Assembly: GCF_055900595.2 (NCBI RefSeq)
Contig: NZ_CM148325.1
DNA: 64,000 bases
Strand: one strand, 5' to 3'
The notes below the pieces were generated by a model. The model had not been told where the DNA came from. It saw only the letters and a list, made by a program, of their open reading frames with translations, and did not search any database. Of this stretch, positions 2,548-51,189 are shown piece by piece. The translations under genes and the position numbers were made by a program. Positions within the stretch are counted from its first letter, which is position 1, and the number at the start of each line of letters is the position of its first letter.

Positions 2548-4035
2548 TTAAATCACCTCTTCGATAACCCACACGCTGACGCTGCCGCCGTTGCAAAAGA
2601 AGGTCGCTTCGCCGTTTTCGTCGGTTACTACGCTCTCTTGCCGGTTCCCCAGAAAATCACGCCAGGTTTTATTGCCGTAATTCTCTCCCAGATGAATGGT
2701 TTTTTCGCCATCATCCCCGTTCGACATGACCACCACGCAGCCGGGATATTCGTCGGTGCCACTGCGGCTAAAGGCAATGCAGTTCGGATGGTCGAAAAAT
2801 AACGTCTGTACACCGTGGGCGAAACGCTGACGGGCGAGAATTAACTCATCAAGCTGTTCGATTATTGGCATATCTATTGGATAGGTTTGCCCGTCACCAC
2901 CGACATCTTCGTAATGCGCACCGTAGAGGTCCGGATAGAACACCGAAGGAACGCCATTTTCCCGCAACAAAATTAGAGCATACGCCAGCGGTTTAAACCA
3001 CGGTTCGACCGGCGCTTCGAGGGCTTGCAACGGTTGGGTGTCGTGATTGGCAACGAGCGTCACGGCGTGGAAAGGATCGGCTTCCACTAATGTACCCGTG
3101 AAAATCTGCGTCATGTCGTAGTCGCGCCCCATGCGCGATGCTTCATGGAATTTCATCTGCAGCGGCGCATCAAACAGCATGGTTTTGCCTTCCACCTGAT
3201 CAATATACGTTTGCAGCTTATCAACTTCATGCGACCAGTATTCCGCCACAATAAACAGCGGCTTTGGCGCAACTTCTTGTACGTGTTCGATCCACTCTTT
3301 ATAAAACCATGCCGGTATATGTTTGACCGCATCAAGACGAAAACCGTCGCATTGCGTTTGTTCCATCACCCAGCGCGCCCAGTATTTAATCTCTTCCGTC
3401 ACGGCATGATTGCGGAAATCGATATTCTCGCCCATCAGATAATCGAAATTACCTAATTCATCATCAACCTGATCGTTCCAGCCTTCGCCGGTGTAGTCGT
3501 TAACAATTTTAAATATGCCATCTTCATCAGGGTTTTCGATATGGTCGATACCGCTAAAACATTTGAAATCCCAGATAAACTGCGAGTATTGCCCGGCACG
3601 AGCGGGGAAGGTGTAACGCGTCCAGCCTTCACACTCAATGATTTCTTCGTCAATTTGCGTACGGTCATCAGCATTTACACGCTGCACGCGAATAGCTTCT
3701 TTTTCATCCGCGCCCATTTTGTGGTTGACTACCACGTCCAACAGCACCGCAATGTCATTACGTTTCAGGGCGTCAATGGCGGCCAGCAGTTGTGCTTTAT
3801 CGCCATATTTAGTAGGGATGCTGCCTTTCTGATCAAACTCACCTAAATCAAATAAATCATAGGAGTCGTAGCCGACCGAATACCCGCCCGATGCGCCTTT
3901 ATAGGCGGGCGGCAACCAGACCATATTGATACCAATATCATTAAAACCGTCGGCGCGCTCGGCCAGTTCAGGCCAGAGCTTACCGCCTTCCGGGTAATAC
4001 CAGTGAAAACATTGTAACAGCGTGGGATTACGCAT
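2548..4035 (-). CDS. amyA: Cytoplasmic alpha-amylase AmyA
   Basis: Track ORF 495 aa; matches K-12 AmyA length and sequence as recalled. Confidence 0.95.
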
Positions 4036-4112
4036 TCTTCGACTCCATTCAAGGGGAACATTAGAAGCGTAGCCGTAATCGGATTATTCGCGAGCCATCG
4101 ACTCATTCAGAT

Positions 4113-4478
4113 TCAAAAGAGGTTATCCTGCGGAGCCAGCACAAAGCCGCCCTGATCGCCATAGGCACTTAACACCGATTTTTGCACCGATGACTGACCG
4201 ACCAGTTTCGCCAGTTCATCCATCCGAATCTGTAATAACTGCTTTACCTTGCTTTCGTTGTCGAGAATCAGGCGCAGCATCGGGCGGAGCTGCTCCTGCA
4301 TCGTGGTGGACGGGTCAATCTCTTCAGTCAAATGTGCAATCTCCTGCACCGCATTAACATACGCCATTTCGCTGGCGATGAGTTCGTCCCATTGTTCTTC
4401 CGTTGCCAGGCGTAACATGAGCTGGCTTTTTTCGACGAGTTGTTGCCAGGCGAAATACAAATGCGGTGCGTGGTTCAT
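4113..4478 (-). CDS. fliT: Flagellar export chaperone / anti-FlhDC factor FliT
   Basis: Track ORF 121 aa; matches K-12 FliT; position downstream of fliS. Confidence 0.93.
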
Positions 4479-4888
4479 CAGACTGGGTCCTGAATCAAAG
4501 AAGGGGAGAGTAACGACTCTTTCCAGGCATCGGCAATATTGCGCATTAATGCTTCCACTTCTTCGACTGCGGAGACATCGTTGCGTAAATTGGCTTGCAG
4601 CAAGCGCCTGACCATATAGCTATAAAGAGCAATCAAGTTTTGGGTTAATTCGTCTTTGCTCTCTTCATCAAGACTCACCCGCAGTCCGTTCTCAATGATG
4701 TTGATCGCTTTTGACAAAGAGACGCCTTTGCCTTGCTGATTGTTGTCCTGCATAAACAGGCGCGCTCTAACCAGTGCGCTCAGCACTCCATCAAATAGCA
4801 TGGTGACCAGCTGCTGCTGGCTGGCGCTCATTACGGCGCTTTCGACGCCAATTTGTGCATAGGCTTTTGAGCCGCTCGCGGTATACAT
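4478..4888 (-). CDS. fliS: Flagellin-specific chaperone FliS
   Basis: Track ORF 136 aa; matches K-12 FliS; stop overlaps fliT start by 1 nt. Confidence 0.95.
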
Positions 4889-4902
4889 GCTGACCTCCGT
4901 GA

Positions 4903-6315
4903 TCAGGAATTACTCATTGCAGTAAATTGTTGGCTGAGATAGGTACTGGTGTTATTCAGTTTGCTCATCATGGTATCTAATTGCGTAAACTGTGCAGTGT
5001 AACGCGCCACGGTGTCATCAATGCTGGCACTGACGGATAGATACTGTTTGGTCAGTTTTTTCAGTGTGGCGTTAATACTGTCCTGTGCGCTATCAATAAT
5101 GCCATCATCGGCAAGGTAACCTTTTACCTCGGTGGCAATTTTGGTGGTAATTCCTGTTTCTTTACCATCGCCTACCAGCAATTCACGTACGGATGCTGTA
5201 TTTTCATTCAGGACTTTTTTGAGTTTATCATCATCAATTTTCAGCTTACCCGTCGTGCCGTCCTGCTTAATCCCGATCTCGTTTAATGTTTTGAAGGCAC
5301 CGTCGCTGGCACCGTTTGCAAATTGTGCGCGGATGCCGCTTTGAATTGTACGTACAACGCTGTCTCCGAGAAGTGCACCATTATTTTTATCTTGTGCTTC
5401 AGCACCTGGGTCTACTTCTTTATATTTTGTCAGGGTGTTAAAGGTGTCAATGAGGGAGTTATATGAATCCACCCAGCCTTTAATTGCTTCGGTTGCTTTA
5501 TCGTTGCTTTTTGTCACCGTGACCCGGACGTCAGTGACTTTTTTGGTCAAATCGAGAGTCACTCCCTGAGGAGCATCGGTAATTTTGTTACTTGAACGTT
5601 CAATATCGATACCGTTAACGTTTAGCTGTGCATTTTGCGCGTTAACCAGTTCCTTCATATTCCCGGTGTTGGTCTTGCTGTCATAAGCCAGCAGATCATT
5701 TAATTTACTGTCACCCTCAACAGATATGGTCATTTTATTGGCCAGACCTTCACTGGCGGTCAATACCAATTGATAGTTACCATCTTTGACTTTAACGATA
5801 CTAGCGGAAATTCCACTATCGGCATCGTTAATGGCTTTGCTGATCTCATCCAATGACGTCTGATCTTTATTGAGCTTGATTTCCAGCGGCTCTTTACGAC
5901 CGTCTTGGGTAATTTTTATTGTGCGTGTATCTGATGACTCATCACCCAGTGCATCTTTTGTTGATGCAATGATTGTCGGGGAATCAGTTCGTAAAGATTG
6001 CGCCTGCGCCAGTTGGGTTACGCTGATGGTATAGATACCGGGAGCAGCACCTGCTTCGGTGGAAACTTTAAGGTCTTCATTGCTACTGGTAACGGTAGTG
6101 CTTTTGAACAGATCGGCTTTATTTAACGCAGTATTTGCAGTCTGGAATTTTTCTAATGCACTTTTTAATGTGCCATAGGCTGTCAGACGTGCGGTATTGT
6201 CACTCTGTTGCTGAGTAATTGGGTTTAAGCGTTTTTTTTCAGCGATGGTCAGGTTGTTTAGCAATGTATCCAGCGGCAGATTCGAACCAACGCCAAGAGA
6301 TGTAAATGAAGCCAT
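4903..6315 (-). CDS. fliD: Flagellar filament cap protein FliD (non-K-12 allele, 470 aa)
   Basis: Track ORF 4903..6393 (496 aa) trimmed to internal ATG at 6315 (MASFTSLGVGS...) with AGGA SD; the longer start would place the sigma28 promoter inside the CDS; conserved FliD termini with divergent centre. Confidence 0.9.
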   Translation of the reverse strand: MASFTSLGVGSNLPLDTLLNNLTIAEKKRLNPITQQQSDNTARLTAYGTLKSALEKFQTANTALNKADLFKSTTVTSSNEDLKVSTEAGAAPGIYTISVTQLAQAQSLRTDSPTIIASTKDALGDESSDTRTIKITQDGRKEPLEIKLNKDQTSLDEISKAINDADSGISASIVKVKDGNYQLVLTASEGLANKMTISVEGDSKLNDLLAYDSKTNTGNMKELVNAQNAQLNVNGIDIERSSNKITDAPQGVTLDLTKKVTDVRVTVTKSNDKATEAIKGWVDSYNSLIDTFNTLTKYKEVDPGAEAQDKNNGALLGDSVVRTIQSGIRAQFANGASDGAFKTLNEIGIKQDGTTGKLKIDDDKLKKVLNENTASVRELLVGDGKETGITTKIATEVKGYLADDGIIDSAQDSINATLKKLTKQYLSVSASIDDTVARYTAQFTQLDTMMSKLNNTSTYLSQQFTAMSNS

Positions 6316-6353
6316 ACCTAATTCCTTTTGATTGCAAACAGTAGATAAGCGGG

Positions 6354-6380
6354 TTATCGGCAATTTGTGCGCAAAGTTTA
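6354..6380 (-). promoter_or_regulatory. sigma28 (FliA) class-3 promoter of fliDST
   Basis: Minus strand reads TAAACTTT-N11-GCCGATAA (consensus TAAAGTTT-N11-GCCGATAA), about 40 nt upstream of the fliD ATG. Confidence 0.8.
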
Positions 6381-6473
6381 ATAGTTGATTCACGAAGATG
6401 ATGCGCAGAGTAGAGTTGTATATTACGGATATTTCAGCCGTTAAGAAAAAACAGGAGAGAAACTAAAATTTTC

Positions 6474-6500
6474 TAAAGTTCGAAATTCAGGTGCCGATAC
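6474..6500 (+). promoter_or_regulatory. sigma28 (FliA) class-3 promoter of fliC
   Basis: TAAAGTTC-N11-GCCGATAC, about 70 nt upstream of the fliC ATG. Confidence 0.8.
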
Positions 6501-6569
6501 AAGGGGTACGGTGAGAAACCGTGGGCAACAGCCCAATAACATCAAGTTGTAATTGATAAGGAAAAGATC

Positions 6570-8144
6570 ATGGCACAAGTCATTAATACAAACAGCCTGT
6601 CGCTGTTGACCCAGAATAACCTGAACAAATCTCAGTCTTCTCTGAGCTCCGCCATTGAACGTCTCTCTTCTGGCCTGCGTATTAACAGTGCTAAAGATGA
6701 CGCAGCAGGTCAGGCGATTGCTAACCGTTTTACAGCAAATATTAAAGGTCTGACTCAGGCTTCCCGTAACGCGAATGATGGTATTTCTGTTGCGCAGACC
6801 ACTGAAGGTGCGCTTTCTGAAATCAACAATAACTTACAGCGTATTCGTGAATTGTCAGTACAGGCCACTAATGGTACAAACTCTGACTCCGACCTGAATT
6901 CAATTCAGGATGAAATTACACAACGCCTTAGTGAAATTGATCGTGTTTCTAACCAGACACAATTTAATGGTGTAAAAGTTCTGGCTTCTGATCAGACTAT
7001 GAAAATTCAAGTAGGTGCGAACGATGGTGAAACCATTGAGATTGCCCTTGATAAAATTGATGCTAAAACCTTGGGGCTTGATAACTTTAGCGTAGCACCA
7101 GGAAAAGTTCCAATGTCCTCTGCGGTTGCACTTAAGAGCGAAGCCGCTCCTGACTTAACTAAGGTAAATGCAACTGATGGTAGTGTGGGAGGTGCTAAAG
7201 CATTCGGTAGCAATTATAAAAATGCTGATGTTGAAACTTATTTTGGTACCGGTAATGTACAAGATACAAAGGATACAACTGATGCGACCGGTACTGCAGG
7301 AACAAAAGTTTATCAAGTACAGGTGGAAGGGCAGACTTATTTTGTTGGTCAAGATAATAATACCAACACGAACGGTTTTACATTATTGAAACAAAACTCT
7401 ACAGGTTATGAAAAAGTTCAGGTGGGTGGTAAGGATGTTCAGTTAGCAAACTTTGGTGGTCGTATAACTGCATTTGTTGAAGATAATGGTTCTGCCACAT
7501 CAGTTGATTTAGCTGCGGGTAAAATGGGTAAAGCATTAGCTTATAATGATGCACCAATGTCTGTTTATTTTGGGGGAAAAAACCTAGATGTCCACCAAGT
7601 ACAAGATACCCAAGGGAATCCTGTACCTAATTCATTTGCTGCTAAAACATCAGACGGCACCTACATTGCAGTAAATGTAGATGCCGCTACAGGTAACACG
7701 TCTGTTATTACTGATCCTAATGGTAAGGCAGTTGAATGGGCAGTAAAAAATGATGGTTCTGCACAGGCAATTATGCGTGAAGATGATAAGGTTTATACAG
7801 CCAATATCACGAATAAGACGGCAACCAAAGGTGCTGAACTCAGTGCCTCAGATTTGAAAGCCTTAGCAACCACAAATCCATTATCCAAATTAGACGAAGC
7901 TTTGGCAAAAGTTGATAAGTTGCGCAGTTCTTTGGGTGCAGTACAAAACCGTTTCGACTCTGCCATCACCAACCTTGGCAACACCGTAAACAACCTGTCT
8001 TCTGCCCGTAGCCGTATAGAAGATGCTGACTACGCAACCGAAGTGTCTAACATGTCTCGTGCGCAGATCCTGCAACAAGCGGGTACCTCTGTTCTGGCAC
8101 AGGCTAACCAGACCACGCAGAACGTACTGTCTCTGCTGCGTTAA
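6570..8144 (+). CDS. fliC: Flagellin FliC (H-antigen; 524 aa, not the K-12 H48 allele)
   Basis: Track ORF; conserved N-terminus [12 protein letters not shown]... and C-terminus ...QNVLSLLR; AT-rich hypervariable centre. Confidence 0.95.
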
Positions 8145-8163
8145 TTTACACTTATCGCTCAAA

Positions 8164-8186
8164 CCCCGCCACCGGCGGGGTTTTTT
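8164..8186 (+). terminator. Rho-independent terminator of fliC
   Basis: CCCCGCC-ACC-GGCGGGG hairpin followed by TTTTTT. Confidence 0.85.
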
Positions 8187-8275
8187 CTGCATGGAATTTA
8201 CCGGTAACCCCCAAATAACCCCTCATTTCACCCACTAATCGTCCGATTAAAAACCCTGCAGAAACGGATAATCAT

Positions 8276-8283
8276 GCCGATAA
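8276..8283 (+). promoter_or_regulatory. sigma28 -10 element (GCCGATAA) of the autoregulated fliA promoter
   Basis: Perfect -10 GCCGATAA 26 nt upstream of the fliA GTG; -35 at correct spacing is a poor match (TGCAGAAA), so only the -10 is called. Confidence 0.55.
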
Positions 8284-8308
8284 CTCATATAACGCAGGGC
8301 TGTTTATC

Positions 8309-9028
8309 GTGAATTCACTCTATACCGCTGAAGGTGTAATGGATAAACACTCGCTGTGGCAGCGTTATGTCCCGCTGGTGCGTCACGAAGCATTGCGCCT
8401 GCAGGTTCGACTGCCCGCGAGCGTGGAACTTGACGATCTGCTACAGGCGGGCGGCATTGGGTTACTTAATGCCGTCGAACGCTATGACGCCCTACAAGGA
8501 ACGGCATTTACAACTTACGCAGTGCAGCGTATCCGTGGCGCTATGCTGGATGAACTTCGCAGCCGTGACTGGGTGCCGCGCAGCGTGCGACGCAACGCGC
8601 GTGAAGTGGCACAGGCAATAGGGCAACTGGAGCAGGAACTTGGCCGCAACGCCACGGAAACTGAGGTAGCGGAACGTTTAGGGATCGATATTGCCGATTA
8701 TCGCCAAATGTTGCTCGACACCAATAACAGCCAGCTCTTCTCCTACGATGAGTGGCGCGAAGAGCACGGCGATAGCATCGAACTGGTTACTGATGATCAT
8801 CAGCGAGAAAACCCGCTACAACAACTGCTGGACAGTAATCTGCGCCAGCGAGTGATGGAAGCTATCGAAACGTTGCCGGAGCGCGAAAAACTGGTATTAA
8901 CCCTCTATTACCAGGAAGAGCTGAATCTCAAAGAGATTGGCGCGGTGCTGGAGGTCGGGGAATCGCGGGTCAGTCAGTTACACAGCCAGGCCATTAAACG
9001 GTTACGCACTAAACTGGGTAAGTTATAA
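8309..9028 (+). CDS. fliA: Flagellar sigma factor sigma28 (FliA/RpoF)
   Basis: Track ORF 239 aa, GTG start; full-length match to K-12 FliA as recalled. Confidence 0.95.
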   Translation: MNSLYTAEGVMDKHSLWQRYVPLVRHEALRLQVRLPASVELDDLLQAGGIGLLNAVERYDALQGTAFTTYAVQRIRGAMLDELRSRDWVPRSVRRNAREVAQAIGQLEQELGRNATETEVAERLGIDIADYRQMLLDTNNSQLFSYDEWREEHGDSIELVTDDHQRENPLQQLLDSNLRQRVMEAIETLPEREKLVLTLYYQEELNLKEIGAVLEVGESRVSQLHSQAIKRLRTKLGKL

Positions 9029-9073
9029 CGTCAGTAAATGCCGCACTTTAATTTTGACTACCAGGAGTTCTTA

Positions 9074-9625
9074 ATGATGGTGCAGCACCTGAAAAGACGG
9101 CCATTAAGCCGCTATCTTAAAGACTTTAAACACAGCCAGACCCATTGCGCGCATTGCCGTAAATTACTCGATCGCATTACCTTAGTTCGCGACGGCAAAA
9201 TAGTGAATAAAATCGAGATTTCCCGCCTGGACACGCTGCTTGATGAAAATGGCTGGCAAGTGGAACAACAATCATGGGCGGCATTGTGCCGATTTTGCGG
9301 TGATTTACATTGCAAAACGCAGAGTGATTTTTTCGATATTATCGGCTTTAAGCAATTTCTTTTTGAGCAAACTGAAATGAGCCCAGGTACGGTGCGTGAA
9401 TATGTCGTTCGTCTGCGCCGTTTGGGGAATCATCTACACGAGCAAAATATTTCCCTCGATCAGCTGCAGGACGGTTTCCTTGATGAAATCCTCGCCCCGT
9501 GGCTGCCCACCACCAGCACCAACAATTACCGCATCGCATTACGGAAGTATCAACACTATCAGCGTCAAACGTGTACCGGACTTGTGCAGAAATCCTCCAG
9601 CCTGCCTGCTTCTGATATATATTAA
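9074..9625 (+). CDS. fliZ: Regulator FliZ
   Basis: Track ORF 9038..9625 trimmed to ATG at 9074 (MMVQHLKRRP...) preceded by CAGGAG SD; matches K-12 FliZ. Confidence 0.9.
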   Translation: MMVQHLKRRPLSRYLKDFKHSQTHCAHCRKLLDRITLVRDGKIVNKIEISRLDTLLDENGWQVEQQSWAALCRFCGDLHCKTQSDFFDIIGFKQFLFEQTEMSPGTVREYVVRLRRLGNHLHEQNISLDQLQDGFLDEILAPWLPTTSTNNYRIALRKYQHYQRQTCTGLVQKSSSLPASDIY

Positions 9626-9712
9626 ATAAGAATAAGATGTAGCGGAGTTGTTTTTGTGTTTACAAACAATGGCTCTACACTGCAAACAGACATAACAACA
9701 TTCGGGGTGAAT

Positions 9713-11604
<1,892 letters not shown>

Positions 11605-13265: not shown

Positions 13266-13988
13266 ATGCAGGATACGGATTTTTTCAGCTGGCGTCGCAC
13301 GATGCTGTTGCGTTTTCAGAGGATGGAGGCCGCAGAAGAGGTCTACCATGAAATAGAGCTTCAGGCTCAGCAGCTGGAGTACGATTACTATTCGTTATGT
13401 GTTCGCCACCCGGTACCATTCACGCGACCTAAAGTGGCTTTCTACACCAATTACCCTGAGGCGTGGGTTAGTTATTATCAGGCAAAAAACTTTCTCGCAA
13501 TTGATCCGGTGCTGAACCCTGAAAACTTTAGTCAGGGCCATTTAATGTGGAATGATGACTTATTCAGCGAAGCACAGCCGTTATGGGAAGCCGCGCGCGC
13601 ACATGGTTTACGCCGCGGTGTCACTCAGTATTTAATGCTGCCAAACCGGGCGTTGGGCTTTTTGTCCTTTTCCCGTAGCAGCGCGCGCGAAATACCCATT
13701 CTTAGTGATGAACTGCAATTAAAAATGCAGTTACTGGTGCGCGAAAGTCTGATGGCTCTGATGCGTTTAAATGATGAAATAGTGATGACGCCAGAGATGA
13801 ATTTCAGCAAGCGCGAAAAAGAAATTTTGAAATGGACGGCGGAAGGGAAGACATCAGCAGAGATAGCGATGATTTTGTCAATCTCTGAGAATACGGTCAA
13901 TTTTCATCAGAAAAACATGCAGAAAAAAATCAATGCACCGAATAAGACCCAGGTTGCCTGTTACGCGGCCGCTACTGGCTTAATTTGA
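13266..13988 (+). CDS. sdiA: LuxR-family AHL-responsive regulator SdiA
   Basis: Track ORF 13254..13988 trimmed to ATG 13266 (MQDTDFFSWRR...); matches K-12 SdiA (240 aa). Confidence 0.93.
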   Translation: MQDTDFFSWRRTMLLRFQRMEAAEEVYHEIELQAQQLEYDYYSLCVRHPVPFTRPKVAFYTNYPEAWVSYYQAKNFLAIDPVLNPENFSQGHLMWNDDLFSEAQPLWEAARAHGLRRGVTQYLMLPNRALGFLSFSRSSAREIPILSDELQLKMQLLVRESLMALMRLNDEIVMTPEMNFSKREKEILKWTAEGKTSAEIAMILSISENTVNFHQKNMQKKINAPNKTQVACYAAATGLI

Positions 13989-14016
13989 TCTCTTTTCTCT
14001 GTTACGTGCCAGATGC

Positions 14017-14052
14017 AAAAACCGGCTGAAAGGCACGCTCTCAGCCGGTTTT
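14017..14052. terminator. Bidirectional terminator between convergent sdiA and yecF
   Basis: AAAACCGGCTGA...TCAGCCGGTTTT hairpin with A-run upstream and T-run downstream. Confidence 0.8.
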
Positions 14053-14055
14053 ATA

Positions 14056-14280
14056 TTACTGACGGTAGGCTTGTTTAATTTGCTTAACCGTTTTGGAAAA
14101 TACTGCAGCCTGGGTTTCGTCTTCGATCAGCGCAAGCTGTTTTTCCATCTTTAACATCACGCGGCCCGCGTCAGCTTGTCCCATCGCCTGCAGCATCAGC
14201 GTCAGCATCGCTTTCAGGCAGGAGACTTCATTTGCCAGTTCTTGATTATTCTCGGCAGTAGAAAAATCAGGCGTACTCAT
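14056..14280 (-). CDS. yecF: Uncharacterised small protein YecF
   Basis: Track ORF 74 aa; matches K-12 YecF as recalled. Confidence 0.85.
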
Positions 14281-14738
14281 TTATTTTCCTCGTCATGTTG
14301 CAATGAAAATTTGCGGTGAAAAATGTTAAGGCGGCGGAGTATACCATAAGCTTTGCTAAAAATAGCAGTGGTTGTTTTTTGAGCGTGCCGTCAACGGTGC
14401 TATTAAATGTGTTAATATAATGACCAATAAATATTTTTATCATGAATGTTTTTTGCCCGTATTGTTCGGGTTAATTAATGTTACATATTCAGCGGGCTGA
14501 TTTTCATTTTTGCTGAATAAAGGTAATTTTTGTCACATTTCGTCGCAGGGCTTACTGTGAAACGATCCGGTAAGCCGTTGGTGACGGGCGTGACCATAAC
14601 TGTGGACAATCGAATTGACAAAAACGAGAGAAAAATCGAATACCCACCATTTTTAACGTTTCAAAGTTGCAATAAAAACCGCTAATATACGAATGACTAA
14701 CTATCAGTAGCGTTATCCCTATTTCTGGAGATATTCCT

Positions 14739-20607: not shown

Positions 20608-20847
20608 ATGGACTCTATTCACGGTCATGAAGTGTTAAATATGATGATTGAATCAGGCGAGCAATATACGCATGCCAGTCTGGAAGCTGCGATTAAAGCG
20701 CGTTTTGGTGAACAGGCACGTTTTCACACCTGCTCGGCAGAAGGGATGACAGCGGGAGAGCTGGTAGCGTTTCTGGCAGCAAAAGGCAAATTTATACCTT
20801 CGAAAGACGGTTTTTCGACCGATCAGAGTAAGATTTGCCGTCACTGA
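20608..20847 (+). CDS. yecH: Uncharacterised protein YecH
   Basis: Track ORF 79 aa; matches K-12 YecH as recalled. Confidence 0.85.
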   Translation: MDSIHGHEVLNMMIESGEQYTHASLEAAIKARFGEQARFHTCSAEGMTAGELVAFLAAKGKFIPSKDGFSTDQSKICRH

Positions 20848-20854
20848 TTTGAAA

Positions 20855-20877
20855 CGGCGGCAGTAAACCTGCCGCCG
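20855..20877. terminator. Hairpin between convergent yecH and ftnA
   Basis: CGGCGGCAG-TAAAC-CTGCCGCCG, 9-bp GC-rich stem. Confidence 0.6.
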
Positions 20878-20884
20878 GAGAGCA

Positions 20885-21382
20885 TTAGTTTTGTGTGTCG
20901 AGGGTAGAGAGTTCTTTGTCGATAAAATACAGACCTTCGCCGCTTTTGCCTGCCAGGCTTAATTTATCAATAATCGATTTGAACAGTTTCTCTTCTTCAT
21001 GCTGCTCAGAAACATACCATTGCAGGAAATTAAATGTTGGGTAGTCCTGATTGGTCATTGCAGCATGAGCCAGTTCGTTAATTTTCTGGGTGATTAATTG
21101 TTCGTGTTTATAGGTTTCCTGGAATAATTCATCAAGTGAGGAATATTCAGCAAACGGAGATTCAACGGTATTAATACGCGGTAAATTGCCGGTATCAGTC
21201 AGGTAATCAAACAGACGCTGCATATGCGTCATCTCTTCCTGGGCGTGACGGCGCAGGAACGCGGCAGCACCTTCGAAGGTATGATAGCTGCACCAGGCGC
21301 TCATTTGCTGATAAAGCAGTGAAGAGTACAGTTCCAGGTTCATCTGCTCATTAAGTTTTTCAATCATTTCTGGTTTCAGCAT
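20885..21382 (-). CDS. ftnA: Ferritin FtnA
   Basis: Track ORF 20885..21397 trimmed to ATG 21382 ([13 protein letters not shown]...); matches K-12 FtnA (165 aa). Confidence 0.93.
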
Positions 21383-21552
21383 GATAGTGCTCCACAAAGG
21401 TTATATTTGTTGCTGTGGCGTCACTATAATTTGTTATTTTATTATTTGCAAAAGGTAAAATATAAACTTCAATTATTAAAAATACGAATGGGAATAAAAC
21501 GCATTACCGCTATTTCTTTAATCAGCGAAGATCCCCTCGCTGATTAAAATAT

Positions 21553-22669: not shown

Positions 22670-23173
22670 TCAATGCAGCTGGTGTGACACGACATTCAGA
22701 ACATGTTGGTCGGTCTGCACAGGGCACATACCCGCAAGTTTCGCACTGCGCACTTCATCAAGAATGGTTTGCAGCAACAGACCATCATGCTGCTGTTCTT
22801 TTTCCAGATCGCGCAGGAAATTGACGGTTGAATCATCATTCAGTTCTTTCGCTTCATCGGCTAACTGTGCCAACGTACTAGAACGTTGCTCGTATTCTTC
22901 CATCGTTTTTTGGAACAGTTCTTCCAGAGAGTTCAGTTTTTCACCGGGAACATCAATGGCTTTAACGATGGGGGTAGCGCCGACACTCTTCATAAAGTTA
23001 AACATGCGCATCATTTGGGTCACATTACTCTGTGCCTGGGCGCGAAGGAAAGTGGCGGTGCCGTTCAGACTCTGTTCAGAACACCAGTTACTCAGGTGAA
23101 GGTAGAGATTGGATGCGTAAAACTCGCGGTTCATTTGAGAGTTGAGTTTGAGAAGCATTCCAGCGGTTGCCAT
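22670..23173 (-). CDS. ftnB: Ferritin-like protein FtnB (YecI)
   Basis: Track ORF 167 aa; ferritin-like fold, paralogue of ftnA; matches K-12 FtnB. Confidence 0.9.
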
Positions 23174-23969
23174 ACCTAATATCCTTATATCCAGAAGTGG
23201 AGAGGTGCAAGATAAATCAAAACACCATAATTACTGTTTGCAGAATAATTCCTTTCTGCCGGTCCGAAATGTGATCGTGGAGTCAATTCTGACGATGATC
23301 TGAAATAAGAATAACGTCTGAACGGGTATAAGAAAATGCTTAAATCATCAAGTTTATATATTTTTACATTTCATTGATGAAATCAATGTAACTGCAATGA
23401 ATTTTAATGATAGCGCTTTTTGTATCTTGTTGATATTAATCAATGAATTTGAATTCATGATGAAGTGATGATTTTATAAAACGTTTTTTCATTTTTGCGA
23501 GATGGCTCTCATTATACGTGTTCTGTTAATTAATGAGCACAGTGATAATTAATGGCGAAATGAATGACGTACATTTTCCACATCTTTGAGTTGCGGTTAT
23601 TACACCATTTCAAAAACTCAACGCCAGGTAATGCGGCCTATTGACTGGTTAAAAAGAAGACATCCCGCATGGGTACCAAAGACAACAAGGATTTCCAGGC
23701 TAATCTTATGGATTAATCTGCTGTGCATTCGACAATTTGTCTGACAAATTGGCTTTCCCTTATGTCTTTTCCCGCTAAATTTATGCACGTTCTCACTGTA
23801 ATTCTGCGATGTGATATTGCTCTCCTATGGAGAATTAATTTCTCGCTAAAACTATGTCAACACGGTCACTTATCTTTTAGTTAAAAGGTAATGCTTTGTT
23901 TTCCGATTAATTTAACGAATGTCATTCGTTTTTGCCCTACACAAAACGACACTAAAGCTGGAGAGAACC

Positions 23970-26557: not shown

Positions 26558-29910
<3,353 letters not shown>

Positions 29911-29916
29911 GAGCGG

Positions 29917-30345
29917 TTAATCACCCGTAAGTGGAACTAACAGCACATCGACCTCACTTGAGGCAATCACTCTTTTCGCCGAGCAGGATGCTCGCGAAAA
30001 GAAACTGTGATTGTGATTACCGCAAATCACCAAATCGAAATGATGTTTGTGACATACTTCCAGAATATGTTCGCTTAACTCACCGTAGGCAATAAACGTC
30101 TTGTCAACGGGATACCCCGCATCCTGAATTAACTTATCAAGAAAGCTTTGCGTTTCTTCTTGCATCACGCTGCGTAAATCTTCAAGCATCGGCGCGGCTA
30201 ATTGATTGTACATTTCCGGGTCGGAAGCGAGAGTAATTAAACTGATGTGTCCCTTTACTGGCCTGGCGATAGATACCGCTTTTGCCAGCAGTTGCTGACT
30301 TTCCGGTGTAACCGCAACAGCGACAAGAATATTGCTATAGCTCAT
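29917..30345 (-). CDS. uspC: Universal stress protein C (UspC/YecG)
   Basis: Track ORF 142 aa; matches K-12 UspC. Confidence 0.9.
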   Translation of the reverse strand: MSYSNILVAVAVTPESQQLLAKAVSIARPVKGHISLITLASDPEMYNQLAAPMLEDLRSVMQEETQSFLDKLIQDAGYPVDKTFIAYGELSEHILEVCHKHHFDLVICGNHNHSFFSRASCSAKRVIASSEVDVLLVPLTGD

Positions 30346-30848
30346 AACCTGTTCCTTATTCTGTGAACTTCAGGTGACATTAAAGCTTTACTCCTAATGG
30401 AGAAACGACGCAATCCCAACTCGGTCAAACAGGTAAATATTAGTCTGATTATTAGTAAAGACAATTAATCAATCACTCCCGGTGATCATATAATTTCAAA
30501 TGTAATTATAAGAAAATAGTGTACTGATTCTCCGCATTAAACAAGTGGTTAATATATGTAAAACATTTCATTTAACATTATGTTGATTGTTGCCTTTCTT
30601 TGTATTTAATTAGTTTGTTGTGCGGTAAGTGTCTGTTTAAAAATAGCTTATCTGGTATTGCATGAAAGTGATTATTTATAGCAGATGATTATTTACGGTG
30701 AGTTATTTTAACTGTGCGCAACATCCCATTTCGATTATTCCTGTTTCATTTTTGCTTGCTAGCGTAGCGAAAAACTTTTTAACAGATTGAAATACACCCA
30801 AAACAAAAGTATGACTTATACATTTATGTTAAGTAATTGAGTGTTTTG

Positions 30849-36572: not shown

Positions 36573-36599
36573 TAAAGTTTCCCCCCTCCTTGCCGATAA
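36573..36599 (+). promoter_or_regulatory. sigma28 promoter of tar-tap-cheRBYZ
   Basis: TAAAGTTT-N11-GCCGATAA, an exact match to the sigma28 consensus, about 30 nt upstream of the tar ATG. Confidence 0.9.
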
Positions 36600-46350: not shown

Positions 46351-46742
46351 TGAGAACCTTATTAGCAATATTATTGTTTCCGCTGCTGGTGCAAGCCGCC
46401 GGGGAGGGGATGTGGCAGGCAAGTAGTGTAGGAATTACGCTAAATCATCGCGGTGAGTCGATGTCGTCTGCGCCTCTTTCTACGCGACAACCTGCTTCAG
46501 GATTGATGACGCTGGTAGCGTGGCGTTATCAGCTTATCGGCCCGACACCTTCAGGACTGCGGGTTCGCTTGTGTTCGCAATCTCGTTGTGTCGAATTAGA
46601 GGGGCAGAGCGGAACCACCGTGGCCTTTTCCGGTATAGCGGCAGCAGAACCGTTGCGCTTTATCTGGGAAGTGCCTGGCGGTGGGCGGTTAATTCCGCCG
46701 CTGAAAGTACAACGTAATGAAGTGATTGTGAATTATCGCTGA
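46350..46742 (+). CDS. flhE: Flagellar protein FlhE
   Basis: Track ORF 130 aa with signal peptide; ATG overlaps flhA stop by 1 nt. Confidence 0.9.
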   Translation: MRTLLAILLFPLLVQAAGEGMWQASSVGITLNHRGESMSSAPLSTRQPASGLMTLVAWRYQLIGPTPSGLRVRLCSQSRCVELEGQSGTTVAFSGIAAAEPLRFIWEVPGGGRLIPPLKVQRNEVIVNYR

Positions 46743-46801
46743 AGGACAAAAAAATTACGCGCTCGCGAGTATGTTTAATAACTCAGTGAAAAAGGCTCGA
46801 T

Positions 46802-46843
46802 GTTTTGTTGCAATTATTTATCAGGAATAGCTTGCAACAAAAC
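46802..46843. terminator. Long hairpin between convergent flhE and yecT
   Basis: Perfect 12-bp inverted repeat GTTTTGTTGCAA / TTGCAACAAAAC around an 18-nt loop. Confidence 0.55.
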
Positions 46844-46861
46844 ATGCCAAAAATATGTGAA

Positions 46862-47371
46862 TTATCCTCTTGTCAAAGGGCTTGGATAAAAATCTTCAGA
46901 GTTACGGTATAGCTGCAACTGGCGAGTTCGCGTATTGGTCTGTATGATCATACATGAGAGCCATTCTGATTCAGAATAAGGGTCACTTAAATCCTGAACG
47001 TCCTCATTTGAAAGGATTAATTCACATTCTTTGTCCCTAAAATCCAGCCAGGCTCGCTGTGATTTTTTAAGCAAGTTAAGTTGTTCGGTATCAGGTTTTT
47101 TTACACCTGTGCGTGGCACTTGTTCTATATAACGATAAGCTTCACCATAGGCTTTATTTAATTGCGCATCGACGAGATTGTATTCTTGTCGCAGGCATGA
47201 TTTGATCACGTTAATGTCACTATCATCATCTGAATTTTTTTGCCAACAATCTTTGATGGCTGAAATGTCATGGTCGTTTACTATAAGCGTATCTTCTGCG
47301 TAAACCTGGCAAGAGATAATGCCTAATGTTAATACAAGAAATTTAAACACTGCGGTATTCCTTAAATTCAA
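46862..47371 (-). CDS. yecT: Secreted DUF1311/LprI-like protein YecT
   Basis: Track ORF 169 aa; N-terminal signal peptide; position between flhE and argS as in K-12; gene name from synteny. Confidence 0.75.
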   Translation of the reverse strand: MNLRNTAVFKFLVLTLGIISCQVYAEDTLIVNDHDISAIKDCWQKNSDDDSDINVIKSCLRQEYNLVDAQLNKAYGEAYRYIEQVPRTGVKKPDTEQLNLLKKSQRAWLDFRDKECELILSNEDVQDLSDPYSESEWLSCMIIQTNTRTRQLQLYRNSEDFYPSPLTRG

Positions 47372-50046: not shown

Positions 50047-50802
<756 letters not shown>

Positions 50803-50847
50803 TTTTTACCGTTGCATCATGTCGCCCAATATGATGCTTGCTCGTAC

Positions 50848-50881
50848 CAGGCCCCTGCAATTTCAACAGGGGCCTTTTTTT
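50848..50881 (+). terminator. Rho-independent terminator of yecM-cutC
   Basis: AGGCCCCTG...CAGGGGCCT hairpin followed by TTTTTTT. Confidence 0.85.
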
Positions 50882-51189
50882 ATCCCTGAGCAGTATAAAA
50901 AACGAACGATAACCGTGATCTGTTGAGCGGGTGACAGTGCGCATAGCGTTGTGCTAAAAATATTTTTTATATTCACATTGATTATGGGATTTAAATTGCT
51001 AAAACTGATAAATATATATTCTAAATAGCAACTGGGTTATTCCTTAGCAATTAATGATTACATTGTAATAAATCATATTCTTTATCGATTATTTCAGGCA
51101 GTGTTGTGCCGAGTTATGCAAGCGGTTAATTCGTTGTGTATTTAATTATACAATGATTTCGGTGTTCTGGAATTTATTTAGAGGAATCT

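Follow-up and report, generated by a model that had tools for sequence, protein, structure and literature searches.

Here we present an analysis of the flagellin gene at positions 6570-8144 of a 64-kb window, by which we mean the whole stretch of DNA that was analysed. In all likelihood the gene is a chromosomal fliC with the known flagellar-antigen allele H16 in a minor variant form, V299I, which settles it as an ordinary, intact and already known serotype allele. The comparisons also indicate that the antigenic core of this allele belongs to an old lineage common to other Enterobacterales and did not come in recently from an AT-rich donor.

The fliC coding sequence (6570..8144, plus strand) specifies 524 aa plus a stop and is 99.9% identical to fliC of H16-named strains. 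Its coordinates, length and identity as a flagellin are those given in the earlier note, which also had the length of K-12 FliC, 498 aa, correctly. Pfam analysis of the 524-aa protein placed Flagellin_N (PF00669) at residues 5-142 (E = 2.3e-45; 154.5 bits, cutoff 26.6) and Flagellin_C (PF00700) at residues 439-523 (E = 1.6e-31; 108.9 bits, cutoff 23), with no Pfam domain detected between the two. The gene occupies the usual fliC locus, divergent from fliDST and upstream of fliAZ. Its neighbours are amyA, fliT, fliS and fliD on the minus strand and fliA, fliZ, tcyJ and dcyD on the plus strand, a gene order that is that of the K-12 fli region in reverse reading and that matches the annotations of K-12 and of the H16 references. 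The fliA, fliZ, fliD, fliS and fliT reading frames are all intact, the FliA protein being 100% identical to that of K-12, and no second flagellin gene was found within the 64-kb window.

The H type, which the earlier note had left unassigned, could be read from public genomes. The core (7100-7860, 761 bases) was matched in 137 of 5426 complete E. coli genomes, at 99% identity or more in 130 of them. Among these 137, the strains with a serotype in their names were O6:H16 (three strains), O25:H16, O157:H16 (two strains), O2:H16 and O25:NM; every serotype-bearing match was thus H16 or non-motile, with no other H name among them, and the core is ~99.9% identical to those of the O6:H16, O25:H16, O157:H16 and O2:H16 strains. 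A sensitive blastn mode returned the identical set of 137 genomes and added none; therefore the core is a discrete form without DNA-level relatives among the other E. coli H types. Judged by the serotypes that public records carry in strain names, the fliC allele appears to be H16. Its serospecificity is set by the hypervariable region, the outer surface domain (7095..7859, plus strand; residues 176-430), which is matched in only the 137 genomes, has no Pfam domain and is all-beta in the predicted model. H16 is frequent in enterotoxigenic O6:H16 and O25:H16 strains and is found in O157:H16 too.

The nearest known loci are those of fliC-H16 WP_000079829.1 (strain 203740) and WP_047646103.1 (O6:H16 strain 2011EL-1370-2), which have the same locus and flanks at 99.96-99.98% identity over 8 kb and fliC genes of equal length, identical at 1574 of 1575 nucleotides. 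The sole difference from the common H16 allele, located by alignment, lies at 7464 on the plus strand, where A replaces G and codon 299 becomes ATA (Ile) in place of GTA (Val). A search of the 5426 complete E. coli genomes yielded no 100% match to the core or to fliC. The exact 524-aa protein (P0020) is nevertheless already public, on 69 contigs and under several NCBI accessions, named E. coli flagellin, so the V299I form is a minor variant that was known before. Several partial entries that bear the label Shigella sonnei, on contigs of 238-3472 bp, also fall inside the H16 flagellin protein cluster; these represent either a cryptic S. sonnei fliC or mislabelled or contaminated assemblies.

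Comparison with K-12 (H48) bore out the description of a non-K-12 allele with a hypervariable core between more conserved ends. The centre does not align with K-12 H48 at high identity: there is no blastn alignment over 7094-7892, the alignments breaking off at 7093 and restarting at 7893, close to the limits of about 7100-7860 given in the earlier note. Forced protein alignment gave 8-28% identity per 25-aa bin in the centre. The claim that the centre is unrelated to K-12 holds for most of its length and is slightly too strong for residues ~345-415, which share a weak motif with both K-12 and H2. The K-12 side of this motif was found by BLASTP of the two centres, as one weak gapped match centred on these residues (E = 0.021, 26% identity over 147 columns). 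The H2 side was found with a profile of the H16-type centre, which matched the H2 centre over residues ~345-415 with an hhalign probability of 84% and E = 8e-6, a remote motif in the C-proximal third of the centre. For the N-proximal two-thirds of the H16 centre, no counterpart was detected in K-12 by BLASTP or in H2 by profile.

The ends, which had been called near-identical to those of K-12, are considerably diverged, with 84% amino acid identity over residues 1-175 and 73% over the last 94 residues; in DNA the values are 75% (N) and 69% (C), or 75.8% and 71.1% by blastn. The divergence also extends well beyond fliC. By blastn the window is 98.8% identical to K-12 up to 4864 and 98.3-99.0% identical from 8164, and between these points the alignment is patchy at 71-76%. 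The diverged block (4865..8163) includes the first fliS codons, fliD, the intergenic promoters, fliC and the start of the 3'UTR, and the fliD-fliC intergenic region is just 53% identical. Since fliD, the intergenic region and fliC are all diverged, the difference from K-12 amounts to a whole fliD-fliC cassette of ~3.3 kb. The image of K-12-like ends around a foreign core does not survive this comparison, with the ends at ~70-75% DNA identity and both fliD and the intergenic promoters diverged as well, and K-12 is accordingly a poor yardstick for "conserved" flagellin ends.

The fliD gene of the cassette (4903..6315, minus strand) encodes a filament cap protein of 470 aa. It is a non-K-12 form found together with this fliC backbone, and its identity to K-12 fliD is 51% at the protein and 56% at the DNA level. 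This form is present in 862 of the 5426 genomes, 859 of them at 99% identity or more, including strains named H2, H8, H11, H16 and H27. The K-12-type fliD is present in 3189 of the 5426, a majority, and we therefore rejected the idea that the K-12 cassette is the exception. As about 1375 genomes have neither of these two, the number of discrete fliD forms in E. coli must be three or more, and these forms go with groups of H types. The window FliD is 86% identical in protein and 79% in DNA to that of Citrobacter portucalensis, and K-12 FliD is nearer to Erwinia FliD (62%) than to the E. coli form in the window (51%).

Both genes of the cassette are preceded by motifs resembling promoters of sigma-28 (FliA). 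For fliC, a one-mismatch regular expression predicted a class-3 promoter-like motif, TAAAGTTC-N11-GCCGATAC, at 6474..6500 on the plus strand; it is two positions off consensus and has a K-12 equivalent at the same relative position. For fliD, a predicted motif, TAAACTTT-N11-GCCGATAA, matches the strict pattern exactly at 6354..6380 on the minus strand. This strict pattern occurs twice in the window, where 0 occurrences are expected, and its second occurrence is a perfect consensus, TAAAGTTT-N11-GCCGATAA, at 36573..36599 on the plus strand, directly upstream of a tar-like methyl-accepting chemotaxis protein gene, which makes it a sensible positive control for the pattern and indicates that the window spans part of the chemotaxis region too. 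Downstream, RNA folding predicts an intrinsic terminator of fliC at 8161..8186 on the plus strand (CCCCGCC-ACC-GGCGGGG then T6; -18.5 kcal/mol, z = -3.3), and this is the first sequence after fliC that is in common with K-12. A generic promoter and terminator scan gave counts at chance level and did not list the plus-strand fliC terminator, and an Rfam search of 4000-10000 returned nothing meaningful, with a sub-threshold anti-hemB match over the terminator only. A 14-pair inverted repeat at 7654-7687 (minus strand), inside the fliC variable region over a conserved motif, was flagged as terminator-like. We rejected that reading: its arms lie on Tyr-Ile and Asn-Val codons, and the repeat is probably due to chance because the number of scan matches equals the shuffle expectation.

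The 3'UTR of fliC (8145-8163) is about 155 nt shorter than that of K-12 (L001:5937-6110). The ~155 additional bases that K-12 has between the fliC stop and the terminator contain REP sequences and most of the annotated sRNA FliX. The REP-containing body of FliX/FliX-S is absent from the window and from the H2, H8, H11 and H27 loci, in which the terminator hairpin alone is in common with K-12. The K-12-type FliX segment is present at 95% identity or more in about 3400 of the 5426 genomes. In K-12, FliX and the ~100-nt FliX-S lower flagellin levels and the number of flagella (PMC10578931). The K-12 form of this sRNA is thus impossible in strains that have the present cassette.

Within the group of alleles that use this cassette, a second and smaller boundary can be recognized. 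Comparison with the O103:H2, O111:H8, O111:H11 and O128:H27 loci divided fliC into three plus-strand segments. The 5' segment (6570..6809) is common to cassette-family alleles, with 0 mismatches to O103:H2 and O111:H11 over 240 bp. The middle segment (6810..7934), delimited by 30-bp and 100-bp mismatch bins and by blastn breakpoints, is specific to H16 relative to all four alleles, with ~25% mismatch at 6810-7069, an unalignable stretch at 7070-7892 and diverged sequence at 7893-7934. The 3' segment (7935..8144) is again common to the H2, H8, H11 and H27 alleles, and across these last 210 bp none of the first six 30-bp bins has more than 1 mismatch and the seventh has no more than 3. The sequence arrangement is that of a nested mosaic. 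At one level there is the fliD-fliC cassette of ~3.3 kb, far from the K-12 type and 98-100% identical among H2, H8, H11, H16 and H27; at a second level, within it, the H16-specific segment of ~1.1 kb (6810-7934), with sharp edges inside the conserved ends. Homologous recombination that exchanges the antigenic core alone could produce such edges, and we infer it here from these abrupt shifts in mismatch density. The picture of conserved ends and an exchanged core is therefore right, but within the cassette family (H2, H8, H11, H27) only. A further observation in this family concerns O111:H8 strain 1074-2 (L006 8576-10413), in which fliZ is interrupted by the IS3-family element IS1203.

Base composition had been offered as a sign of exchange, the centre being described as AT-richer than its flanks. 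GC content is 0.501 for the window, 0.428 for fliC and 0.437 for fliD. The value for 4903-7934 is 0.422, with 0.50-0.51 on either side, and the region of low GC is in fact the entire fliD-fliC block. Within fliC, total GC does not distinguish the centre from the N end (0.407 versus 0.425, Fisher p = 0.53) and does distinguish it from the C end (0.496, p = 0.011). For the third position of codons (GC3) the description stands on both sides, with 0.239 in the centre against 0.366 in the N end (p = 0.005) and 0.500 in the C end (p = 7e-6). The interpretation fares less well, as the centre GC3 is also low in K-12 (0.262), H2 (0.303), H11 (0.280), Franconibacter (0.314), Buttiauxella (0.263), Pantoea (0.247), Citrobacter (0.225-0.276) and Erwinia (0.356), that is, between 0.225 and 0.356 in each of the ten flagellins examined, which come from six genera and from K-12. 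With equally low values in every flagellin, K-12 included, AT-richness does not discriminate foreign DNA; it is a general property of flagellin variable regions, not evidence of a foreign H16 core. Elsewhere in the window, GC falls below 0.43 at ~13700-14300, 20750-21400, 22700-23450, 29800-30750, 46550-46950 and 50450-51050, with the lowest value among these stretches, 0.348, at about 23200 and about 30300.

Searches outside E. coli revealed homologues of the H16-type core, about 52-75% identical over its full length, in Franconibacter, Buttiauxella, Pantoea, Erwinia, Citrobacter and Atlantibacter; the homologue loci (L008, L010, L012-L016) represent seven taxa, two of them Citrobacter species. 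When 5.8 billion proteins were searched by a word index, flagellins with 57-62% identity over the centre were recovered, among them that of Atlantibacter hermannii (57% identity, 100% query coverage); Erwinia rhapontici came in through the names of protein clusters. Against 1.84 billion cluster representatives, an exhaustive search gave 9 matches in all, from which it follows that the H16-type centre is rare. In a scan of species representatives, aligned over the centre only, identity was 74% for Franconibacter helveticus, 64% for Buttiauxella agrestis, 60% for Pantoea eucrina, 52% for C. freundii and 51% for C. portucalensis. The housekeeping flanks of these loci diverge from the window, with ~77% DNA identity for Atlantibacter and 70-74% for Erwinia, which confirms the relatives as different genera. 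In a matrix of centre identities, Pantoea goes with Erwinia and the two Citrobacter species go with Atlantibacter, while E. coli H16 goes with Franconibacter (75%) and Buttiauxella (67%), not with Citrobacter (55%); the grouping is thus partly taxonomic, with the placement of E. coli as the exception. The flagellins of Erwinia and P0003 join an H16-like centre to K-12-like ends.

The ends of H16 are also nearer to those of these genera than to K-12, reaching 98.9% protein identity at the C end with Franconibacter and 97% at the N end with C. portucalensis. Their DNA identity is 81-86% for Enterobacteriaceae genera, and the fraction of identical codons at positions with the same amino acid is ~0.5-0.6 (up to 0.71) for the other genera, whereas E. 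coli H2 and H11 give 0.75-0.83. A recent import of the H16 core from another genus was considered and rejected, with DNA identity of 58-85% by region; synonymous sites are near saturation relative to the nearest foreign homologues, which excludes such an event. Hu and Reeves (2020) stated that no E. coli form of the hypervariable region (HVR) was significantly similar to flagellins of other species. For H16 this statement is no longer valid under current data: clear homologues exist in other genera for at least one E. coli variable region.

Three other explanations of the locus were weighed against that of a known H16 allele. The first builds on the earlier note: a K-12-like fliC in which an AT-rich segment of foreign origin, acquired recently, took the place of only the surface domain. 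The failure of the centre to align with K-12 and its very low GC3 (0.239) agree with this model, but the latter loses its force beside the K-12 centre (0.262) and the other flagellins (0.225-0.356). The ends are only 69-76% identical to K-12 in DNA, fliD and the intergenic region have diverged with them, and synonymous sites are near saturation even against the nearest foreign homologues, all of which makes the model very improbable. Still less credible is a new H type, or an antigenically distinct sub-type created by V299I. It is true that this change is non-synonymous and falls within the exposed surface domain, and that 0 of the 5426 complete genomes are 100% identical in the core. It is, however, one conservative substitution in 524 residues, the exact protein on 69 public contigs is named simply E. 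coli flagellin, and strains named H16 already cover variants of 98.6-99.9% identity, including one form that is 9 bp shorter.

The third explanation accepts the allele and denies it an effect: fliC would be there, but unexpressed or without function, and the strain would be non-motile (H-), so that its allele is phenotypically meaningless. A strain recorded as O25:NM has the same allele, and motility needs many genes beyond those covered in the window. Against this, the reading frame is unbroken, the locus has its two sigma-28 motifs and its terminator, and fliA, fliZ, fliD, fliS and fliT are undamaged, with a FliA that equals the K-12 protein at 100%. We regard a silent gene as unlikely, though less so than the other two explanations, and retain the reading of an intact H16 allele.

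For such an H16 allele, a route from gene to antigen can be proposed. Motifs and folding suggest that sigma-28 would transcribe fliC as a class-3 gene from the promoter-like element at 6474-6500, and that transcription would stop at the hairpin at 8161-8186. By analogy with established flagellar biology, the flagellin of this copy would be exported via the flagellar type III apparatus, assisted by FliS, and would polymerise beneath the FliD cap, its helical N and C ends forming the filament core (D0/D1) and its all-beta centre, residues ~176-430, presenting the exposed surface that antibodies read as H16. Modelling of the core as an isolated domain gave the all-beta structure at a pLDDT of 87.8. 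The whole-chain model had structural matches to flagellins only. A fold search with the whole chain was discarded as a guide to the centre, being uninformative because the helical core dominates it, and was redone with the domain-only model; no solved structure matched this confident model of the H16 centre.

Taken together, these results allow a broader reading, which we put forward tentatively and at somewhat less than even odds as a whole: that H16 represents an old, self-contained surface module on a distinct cassette, with consequences linked to the H type. In this joint reading, the module would have a fold unlike any solved flagellin outer domain and would be common to at least seven Enterobacterales genera, sometimes residing on a mobile, phase-2-like islet beside an FljA-type repressor, as in Franconibacter. 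In E. coli it would ride a Citrobacter-like fliD-fliC cassette without the FliX RNA, and the H type would thereby be linked to differences in the cap protein and in post-transcriptional flagellar control. If true, this joint reading contradicts the published claim that no E. coli HVR is similar to those of other species.

Set beside known systems, the locus shares different parts with each of them. K-12 FliC (H48, NP_416433.1) has the same locus and the same D0/D1 architecture of Pfam N and C domains, with its sigma-28 motifs at equivalent positions, and differs in sequence throughout (84%, ~25% and 73% amino acid identity in the N end, centre and C end), in its partner FliD, just 51% identical, and in a 3'UTR that is ~155 nt longer and encodes FliX. 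With the H2, H8, H11 and H27 loci the window shares its fliD form (99.6-100%), a 100% identical intergenic region and the short fliC-fliA spacer; the flagellins of these loci are shorter (486-497 aa), with a core unrelated in DNA over 6810-7934 and a centre of 13-15% protein identity. The Salmonella FliC filaments 1UCU and 9GNZ are the best whole-chain match in structure and sequence, via the helical D0/D1 core, and the H16 outer-domain model does not superimpose on the Salmonella-type D2/D3 of solved FliC and FljB structures. The closest relative outside E. coli is the flagellin of Franconibacter helveticus LMG 23732 (L012), which has 524 aa, as H16 does, and is 86% identical overall, with 96% in the N end, 73-75% in the centre and 98.9% in the C end, at ~82-84% DNA identity in the ends. 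Its gene lies away from the fliD/fliA locus (L012 4476-7377), following genes for a LacI-family regulator and a PTS EIIC, and is itself followed on the 3' side by an FljA-type "Repressor of phase-1 flagellin" (Pfam) and then a Dam + resolvase-HTH gene, an arrangement that resembles a phase-2 flagellin islet.
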